DNA of 64,000 bases from Promethearchaeota archaeon (GTDB lineage Archaea > Asgardarchaeota > Lokiarchaeia > Sigyniarchaeales > SOKP01), in NCBI GenBank assembly GCA_016839765.1, contig JAEOTP010000016.1, positions 4,027-68,026 of the forward strand. The letters are read 5' to 3'. The notes beneath the pieces were generated by a model, which worked only from the letters and a program-made list of their open reading frames with translations, did no database searches and was not told the DNA's origin. Shown here one piece after another: positions 636-58,137 of this stretch (the first letter of the stretch is position 1; each line of letters begins with the position of its first letter). A program made the position numbers and the translations under genes.

Positions 636-741
636 AAAAAATAAAATAAAATTTTTTTATTAACAAGAATTATATTTTTTTGTATTTAGATATTAGATTC
701 TAAATGATGGCTCGGTTCGTATAGTGGTTAGTATTGGGGAC

Positions 742-771
742 GATTCTTGAAAAATATTCAAGAATCCCCAC
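742..771 (+). other. tRNA-His intron 1 (position 32/33), 30 nt, BHB-type
   Basis: Intron stem ATTCTTGAA/TTCAAGAAT, central helix GGGG/CCCC and 3-nt bulges AC^G and AC^T. Cleavage after the second bulge nucleotide restores the CTGTGAA loop. Confidence 0.88.
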
Positions 772-784
772 TGTGAATCCTTAG

Positions 785-815
785 TGATTGGGGGAATTTC
801 TCTCCTTTCGGGGAA
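785..815 (+). other. tRNA-His intron 2 (variable loop, position 45/46), 31 nt, BHB-type
   Basis: Central helix CCTT/GGGG, bulges AG^T and AA^A, and an imperfect stem GATTGGGGG/TCTCCTTTC. Removal gives a 4-nt AGAC variable loop. Confidence 0.78.
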
Positions 816-961
816 ACGGGGGTTCGATTCCCCCACCGAGCCCTTCTTAATCTATAATTTCTATTTTTTGTTTTAAATTTAAGTATAATTACATAAAATG
901 GAAGATTAAAATCTGTAGAATTATTTTCTTATATAACTGATACTAATTAATATTTGTAATT

Positions 962-58033: not shown

Positions 58034-58137
58034 GGGAGGGTGGTCTAGCTTGGTATGATACATTAGCTTGGTTCTTTCAAACTAAATCTAATCGGCTGGG
58101 GGCCGAGTGGTCGGGGGTTCAATTCCCCCCTCTCCCA
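58034..58137 (+). tRNA. tRNA-Pro(GGG) with a non-canonical intron at 27/28
   Basis: Acceptor GGGAGGG/CTCTCCC, D-arm GTCT-AGCTTGGTA-TGAT, T-arm GGGGG-TTCAATT-CCCCC and discriminator A58137. Removing 58062-58091 gives anticodon arm CTCGG-CTGGGGG-CCGAG. CCA is not encoded. Confidence 0.9.
58062..58091 (+). other. tRNA-Pro intron (27/28), 30 nt, relaxed BHB
   Basis: Stem TTAGCTTGG/TCAAACTAA (8 of 9 pairs), central TGAT/ATCT (3 pairs + U-U) and bulges AC^A and AA^T. Confidence 0.8.

Follow-up and report, generated by a model that had tools for sequence, protein, structure and literature searches.

Organisation of the tRNA-His locus

Near the start of the window, which is the whole 64,000-nt stretch of DNA analysed here, the parts of a tRNA-like gene are separated by two short inserts. 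Comparative sequence analysis confirmed 709–842 on the forward strand as a real tRNA-His(GUG) gene of a Loki-type Asgard archaeon that carries two small introns, and the gene and its surroundings are laid out as follows.

648–681 (+): candidate promoter boxes, A/T-rich, with AAAATTTTTTTA at 648–659 and TTATATTTTTTT at 670–681 (read from sequence)
709 (+): G-1, genomically encoded, opposite C842 (C73)
710–741 (+): exon 1, tRNA positions 1–32 (acceptor 5′ strand, D arm, anticodon stem 5′ strand and C32)
710–716 (+): acceptor 5′ strand within exon 1, 7 bases, with the D arm and GGGGAC next
742–771 (+): intron 1, 30 nt, site 32/33
772–784 (+): exon 2, TGTGAATCCTTAG, tRNA positions 33–45 (U33, anticodon stem 3′ strand, A44 and G45)
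773–775 (+): anticodon GUG, inside exon 2
785–815 (+): intron 2, 31 nt, site 45/46
816–842 (+): exon 3, tRNA positions 46–73 (A46, C48 and the discriminator C842)
818–834 (+): T arm, perfect, preceded by AC in exon 3
835–841 (+): acceptor 3′ strand in exon 3, with C842 next
843–874 (+): 3′ trailer, with T runs at its end (864–869 and 871–874; read from sequence)

When both inserts were deleted, ARAGORN returned a tRNA-His(gtg) of 73 bases in which none of the four stems was broken, and the deletion of one insert alone gave no intron-free ARAGORN call. The G709–C842 pair extends the acceptor stem to 8 bp. The same G-1/C73 pair is kept in all the orthologues examined, and G-1 was present even in those that had been found without requiring it. 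All three exons follow one another in collinear order within 134 nt, and the gene is neither split nor permuted. CCA is not encoded, as CTT directly follows C73, and the trailer begins with CTC, CTT or CTA in 45/45 orthologous loci. The T runs that end the trailer are a likely terminator, and the A/T-rich boxes upstream of the gene form a candidate archaeal promoter. A AAATTTTTTTA-type box is found ~40–60 nt 5′ of G-1 in most orthologous loci, and this conserved box is a possible BRE/TATA element.

Intron junctions and BHB motifs

The predicted spliced product was identical letter by letter, from G-1 to C73, to the tRNA-His of two intronless orthologues, L024 and L056, both of which are called tRNA-His by ARAGORN. 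L024, which has the same sequence as the spliced product, scored 59.1 bits with the Rfam model RF00005, the gathering score being 29. Because the intronless alleles equal the predicted product exactly, the intron boundaries were fixed without using any motif. Given the intronless product, there is a single possible placement for intron 2 (785–815). For intron 1, three placements (30/31, 31/32 and 32/33) yield one and the same product, because AC is repeated at both ends of the intron, and among these three the BHB register fits 32/33 only.

The BHB rule applied here was a 4-bp helix flanked on each side by a 3-nt bulge that is cut behind its second base; the textbook 37/38 intron obeys this rule and was used as a check on it. 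The central helix of BHB 1 pairs 736–739 (GGGG) with 766–769 (CCCC) at 4/4 positions, its bulges are 740–742 (ACG) and 770–772 (ACT), and its inner hairpin consists of 9 bp formed by 743–751 with 757–765. The central helix of BHB 2 pairs 779–782 (CCTT) with 810–813 (GGGG), again 4/4 and made of two G-C and two G-U pairs, with the bulges 783–785 (AGT) and 814–816 (AAA) and an imperfect inner hairpin within 786–809. The cut after the second bulge base reproduced the 32/33 and 45/46 junctions in the respective BHBs, matching the junctions obtained free of any motif. We estimated that, at the base composition of this genome, a central helix pairs 4/4 by chance in a fixed register with a probability of ~0.024, and that both helices do so with one of ~0.002. 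The initial annotation had proposed two non-canonical introns, at 32/33 and 45/46, each lying in a BHB, and this proposal is upheld by the agreement between the register and the intronless alleles.

The outer helix has one G-U pair at intron 1 and none at intron 2, which falls short of the strict hBHBh′ form. With the outer helices essentially missing, both motifs are therefore of the relaxed BHBh′ type, within the known family, and such relaxed motifs need an EndA of broad specificity. The central helices occupy tRNA positions 27–30 and 40–43, which are the two strands of the anticodon stem. That the anticodon-stem strands are used in this way adds nothing peculiar to the locus, because the BHB geometry forces it for any intron at 32/33 or 45/46.

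Another reading of the same stretch comes from ARAGORN with introns allowed (-i), which called 709–842 as tRNA-Glu(ttc) with a 55-nt intron, i(33,55). The locus would then be another gene, a tRNA-Glu(UUC) with one 55-nt intron, or would be cut in another way, with a single intron at 742–815; our combinatorial solver also gave Pro or Gln products when these were ranked by local motif score alone. We consider these readings highly improbable, as the intronless orthologues fix a tRNA-His(GUG) with exactly the two deletions 742–771 and 785–815, relatives have either intron alone (the 45/46 intron only in L010, the 32/33 intron only in L028 and L041), and G-1/C73 is the histidine identity pair.

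The two-intron tRNA-His(GUG) gene was not seen by the other standard searches. Default ARAGORN found no tRNA in the whole window, and the Rfam tRNA model left 709–842 unreported at the gathering and at permissive thresholds. It had been anticipated that standard scans would miss or mis-call this gene, and both happened: Rfam and default ARAGORN missed it, and ARAGORN -i gave it the wrong identity. Without intron-aware curation, this genome would seem unable to decode His codons.

Other interrupted tRNA genes and the search for a second tRNA-His

The host genome assembly (3.32 Mb, 29.7% GC, 95.9% complete, 96 contigs), in which the window spans C67:4027–68026, gave 15 uninterrupted tRNA genes with ARAGORN and 27 tRNA matches with Rfam. 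Interrupted tRNA genes were surveyed by a de novo, genome-wide census that brought together seeds in the T arm and the acceptor, combinations of BHBs, and ARAGORN. The ranking of this census was unreliable, since high scores went to short spurious "introns", the right His solution did not come first and a tRNA-Pro was mis-solved; it was therefore used only for a rough statement on interruption. In this rough seed-based census, the removal of at least one insert was needed in 19 of the 31 tRNA-like loci, and most detectable tRNA genes of this genome appear to be interrupted.

Two other interrupted genes were noted in and next to the window. The region 58034–58137 (+) is a tRNA-Pro(GGG) gene, by comparison with the intronless tRNA-Pro(TGG) paralogues of relatives, and has one 30-nt intron (58062–58091) at site 27/28, within the anticodon stem, with a central helix of 3/4 and an inner stem of 8/9. 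The Rfam model gave it 35.9 bits with a 45-nt unaligned block, and ARAGORN -i miscalls it as tRNA-SeC. The second is a 133-nt tRNA-like gene (C67:68294–68426) lying ~270 nt past the window end, with two inserts to remove; its anticodon is uncertain, the solver giving Arg(GCG) and ARAGORN -i giving SeC.

A second tRNA-His was searched for throughout the genome by scans that depend on similarity in sequence or on an unbroken anticodon arm. The nhmmer profile of the spliced orthologues matched only the 709–842 locus in the genome, and the next match was a tRNA-Asp. The anticodon-arm scan gave 44 perfect GUG look-alikes, three of which were near a T-arm-like motif, and none of them was a tRNA. To the question of whether this is the only tRNA-His in the genome, both the profile and the anticodon-arm scan gave the same answer, no second gene having been found by either; in an assembly that is 96% complete, 709–842 is the sole tRNA-His gene found, which lends indirect support to its being charged by HisRS and used in translation. 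One "His" candidate, at C34:16614, was rejected. It is a tRNA-Ser(GGA) gene (C34:16614–16728) whose variable arm is long, whose base -1 is T and whose discriminator is G; it is interrupted by a canonical 31-nt intron at 37/38, and the solver had wrongly offered His or Pro for it.

Orthologous loci and their introns

Orthologues were found by BLAST against relatives and by a pattern scan of public genomes, and the gene was recovered from genomes of Promethearchaeota / Promethearchaeia, the Loki-type Asgard archaea. Both the upstream and the downstream flanks were homologous in almost all cases, and the loci are therefore orthologous; tRNA-His was present at the same locus with the same neighbours in ~47 genomes. 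The comparison set consisted of 45 distinct loci and two more with a D-loop intron (L004 and L008). The tRNA-His gene was found to contain 0–4 introns distributed over seven sites (~15/16, 22/23, 32/33, 37/38, 45/46, 58/59 and 59/60), with 14 intron combinations among the 45 loci. The 32/33 plus 45/46 pattern is common to the closest relatives of the window, at a flank identity of 78–98%, and flank identity is ~71–73% for the intronless alleles whose mature sequence is the same. The most interrupted gene seen was that of L037 (RDOE01000024.1, isolate SZ_4_bin8.338), which measures 191 nt and has four introns at 22/23, 32/33, 45/46 and 58/59. The boundaries of the extra D-loop intron (~15/16) of L004 (G018:C18) and L008 (G005:C181) were read by eye. 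One record (L049, DATKTW010000051.1) is titled "Candidatus Nanopelagicaceae bacterium"; its tRNA-His is of Loki type, has three introns and is identical to that of L012, and the record is probably mislabelled or mis-binned.

The exons were near-invariant over the 45 distinct loci, and they were identical across relatives whose flanks had diverged to 70–98% identity. The introns varied in sequence and in presence, with the motif kept: the central helix was 4/4 in 67 of the 74 distinct introns, and the length was exactly 30 nt in 51 of them, following a plan of one bulge base, then a 9-bp stem closed by a 5-nt loop, then four helix bases and two bulge bases. Covariation was scored on 17 different orthologous 30-nt introns at 32/33. 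In these, the inner hairpin had changes on both sides in 8 of its 9 pairs, 88.7% of the cells of the inner stem were paired as compared with 42–58% when the partner was slid, and the covariation score of the hairpin was reached by 0/500 shuffles. At the second site, close relatives have the intron strand GAGG where the window has GGGG, which changes a U-G into a U-A opposite the exon CCTT and gives a better pair. Together, apparent purifying selection on the exons and introns that seem constrained in shape and free in sequence are the look expected of working BHB introns.

These comparisons bear on whether the gene is alive. It could be a decaying or silent tRNA-His pseudogene, the working copy being placed in the unassembled ~4% of the genome or being split or permuted so heavily that it escapes detection; an assembly that is 95.9% complete and in 96 contigs, together with scans that depend on similarity or on an intact anticodon arm, leaves some room for such a copy. 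We hold this to be very unlikely, because the exons have stayed identical among relatives with flanks at 70–98% identity, the BHB geometry has been kept through compensatory changes, the same locus and neighbours hold tRNA-His in ~47 genomes, and no second candidate was seen in the genome. That 709–842 is the single functional tRNA-His(GUG) gene of this genome, with its introns spliced via the BHBs, is predicted with high confidence.

Processing enzymes and the encoded G-1

The host genome encodes two EndA paralogues. EndA alpha (201 aa) contains Pfam PF01974 and PF02778, has the Aeropyrum pernix alpha subunit as its best PDB match (E 3e-37) and keeps the catalytic Tyr142, His150 and Lys181 (Y142, H150, K181). 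Furthermore, it aligns gap-free through the Crenarchaea-specific loop, where its K59 stands opposite K44, and K44 of this loop is known to give broad specificity (PMC5829648). The second paralogue (205 aa) has kept the fold with Ala in place of the catalytic His, and because this His is absent it looks like the structural beta subunit. An RtcB ligase is also encoded (E 1e-170). Judged by these similarities, the host appears to encode both an RNA ligase and a splicing endonuclease that can act on non-canonical sites.

Removal of the inserts without EndA and RtcB, by self-splicing or another nuclease for instance, or the retention of the inserts as expansions, is hardly credible on the present data. 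No evidence supporting it was found; at 30–31 nt the inserts are far below the size of group I or group II ribozymes, the exact BHB register and the covariation indicate recognition by EndA, and inserts that stayed in place would wreck both the variable region and the anticodon stem. In addition, genes for RtcB and for both EndA subunits, alpha and beta, are present.

The initial annotation had also held that G-1 is encoded opposite C73 and that Thg1, which eukaryotes use, is not needed. This was found to be so: G709 and C842 are paired, and a Thg1 domain was found neither in the 96%-complete host genome nor in the four same-genus genomes searched. Thg1-family domains are patchy in Asgard archaea, being found in 13 of 81 sampled genomes. 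The base 5′ of G-1 was T in 42 of the 45 loci and C in the remaining 3. Most Bacteria and Archaea encode their G-1 as a rule (PMC3061083), and the one at this locus is for that reason not special; it agrees with the G-1 of bacterial and most archaeal tRNA-His in being templated opposite C73, in its predicted survival of 5′ processing and in making Thg1 unneeded, and nothing differs here.

Predicted precursor folding and proposed processing pathway

Fold energies were calculated with the acceptor, D and T arms held and are predictions only. The full precursor was predicted at −51.3 kcal/mol with both BHBs and at −44.6 kcal/mol with the anticodon stem. The earlier proposal that the BHB central helices use the anticodon-stem strands and thereby block the stem agrees with this, the double-BHB fold being predicted to be better by ~6.7 kcal/mol. 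With intron 2 removed, the BHB 1 fold was predicted at −40.3 kcal/mol against −36.2 kcal/mol for the anticodon-stem fold; with intron 1 removed, the corresponding predictions were −33.7 kcal/mol for the BHB 2 fold and −35.3 kcal/mol for the anticodon-stem fold. The modelled energies hint that the 45/46 intron would best be cut before or together with the 32/33 intron, which would amount to a weak preferred order. In the unconstrained minimum-energy fold of the precursor, BHB 1 forms and BHB 2 does not, the G run of intron 2 being paired with the C run of the T arm; BHB 2 appears only once the acceptor, D and T arms are constrained.

Beyond what was read directly from the genomes, namely the gene structure, the junctions, the BHB register, the conservation and covariation, the presence of the enzymes and the uniqueness of the gene, we infer that splicing takes place in vivo and uses EndA and RtcB, where RNase P cleaves, and that a weak order is preferred. 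In the pathway proposed, transcription of the locus would yield a precursor no shorter than 134 nt, in which each intervening sequence would fold with the adjacent exon bases into a BHB. As the anticodon-stem strands are borrowed for the central helices, both BHBs could coexist in this precursor and the anticodon stem could not. The heterotetrameric (alpha-beta)2 EndA would cut each 3-nt bulge behind its second base, RtcB would join the three exons, and only then would the anticodon stem (27–31 with 39–43) form. RNase P would spare the encoded G-1, so that Thg1 would be unneeded, and CCA would be added post-transcriptionally.

Relation to known tRNA introns and intron turnover

Asgard archaea whose (alpha-beta)2 EndA carries the L1 loop have been described, and disrupted tRNA genes yet to be identified were predicted for them (Kaneta et al, 2018; PMC5829648). 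A later Asgard study reported that 92–95% of tRNA genes contain introns, many of them with several non-canonical introns (Valentin-Alvarado et al, 2024; PMC11291895). Repeated intron gains at BHB sites were described for 90 Asgard genomes, together with the finding that ~30% of introns are missed by annotators (Goswami et al, 2026; bioRxiv 10.64898/2026.10.13.758758). The present locus has in common with the published multi-intron Asgard tRNAs the Asgard host, at least two introns per gene, the non-canonical sites, the BHB boundaries, an (alpha-beta)2 EndA with L1 loop, gains and losses between close relatives, and the fact of being under-called.

The differences from the published cases concern lineage, length and the gene itself. 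The published Asgard work centres on Atabeyarchaeia, Freyarchaeia and Jordiarchaeia, and Loki lineages are unnamed in the 2026 main text. The published median length of Asgard introns is 22–23 nt, whereas 51/74 introns at this Loki-type locus are exactly 30 nt. This particular tRNA-His gene is absent from the published Asgard descriptions (PMC5829648; PMC11291895; bioRxiv 10.64898/2026.10.13.758758). The gene is a clean new example of a published class, that of multi-intron, non-canonical Asgard tRNA genes. What it adds is a well-controlled Loki-type example, in which intronless alleles fix the junctions, the introns show covariation and the enzymes are encoded; the understanding of tRNA-His identity and of BHB splicing is unchanged by it.

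The tRNA introns of Thermoproteales (Sugahara, 2008; Fujishima, 2010) have features that are shared here, namely up to several introns per gene outside 37/38, a CSL-bearing (alpha-beta)2 EndA and a precursor that needs a non-cloverleaf local fold. Unlike in the Thermoproteales case, the similarity at this locus between introns at different positions was not above that of shuffled controls, and a second copy of either intron was absent in the genome, bar short A/T-rich chance matches. Likewise, the 30-nt module was not enriched genome-wide, with 56 matches having a 3-nt bulge and 43–65 being found when the same hairpin was given a bulge of another size. No signs of intron mobility were thus found in genome copies, in between-position similarity or in module enrichment.

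A bolder reading of the series of loci is that this site is a hotspot of intron turnover, at which the introns would be made by a dedicated templated process and would not be the tolerated leftovers of random insertion. As a candidate process, introns of 30 nt that had been excised would reverse-splice into sites compatible with a BHB and then be copied back into DNA. We think this rather unlikely and put it forward only as a speculation. A second, smaller reading may be placed beside it, in which the splicing order would be obligatory, 45/46 before or with 32/33, and set by competition with the anticodon stem. The presence/absence series at one syntenic locus makes this tRNA-His gene a handy natural experiment on the gain and loss of BHB introns.
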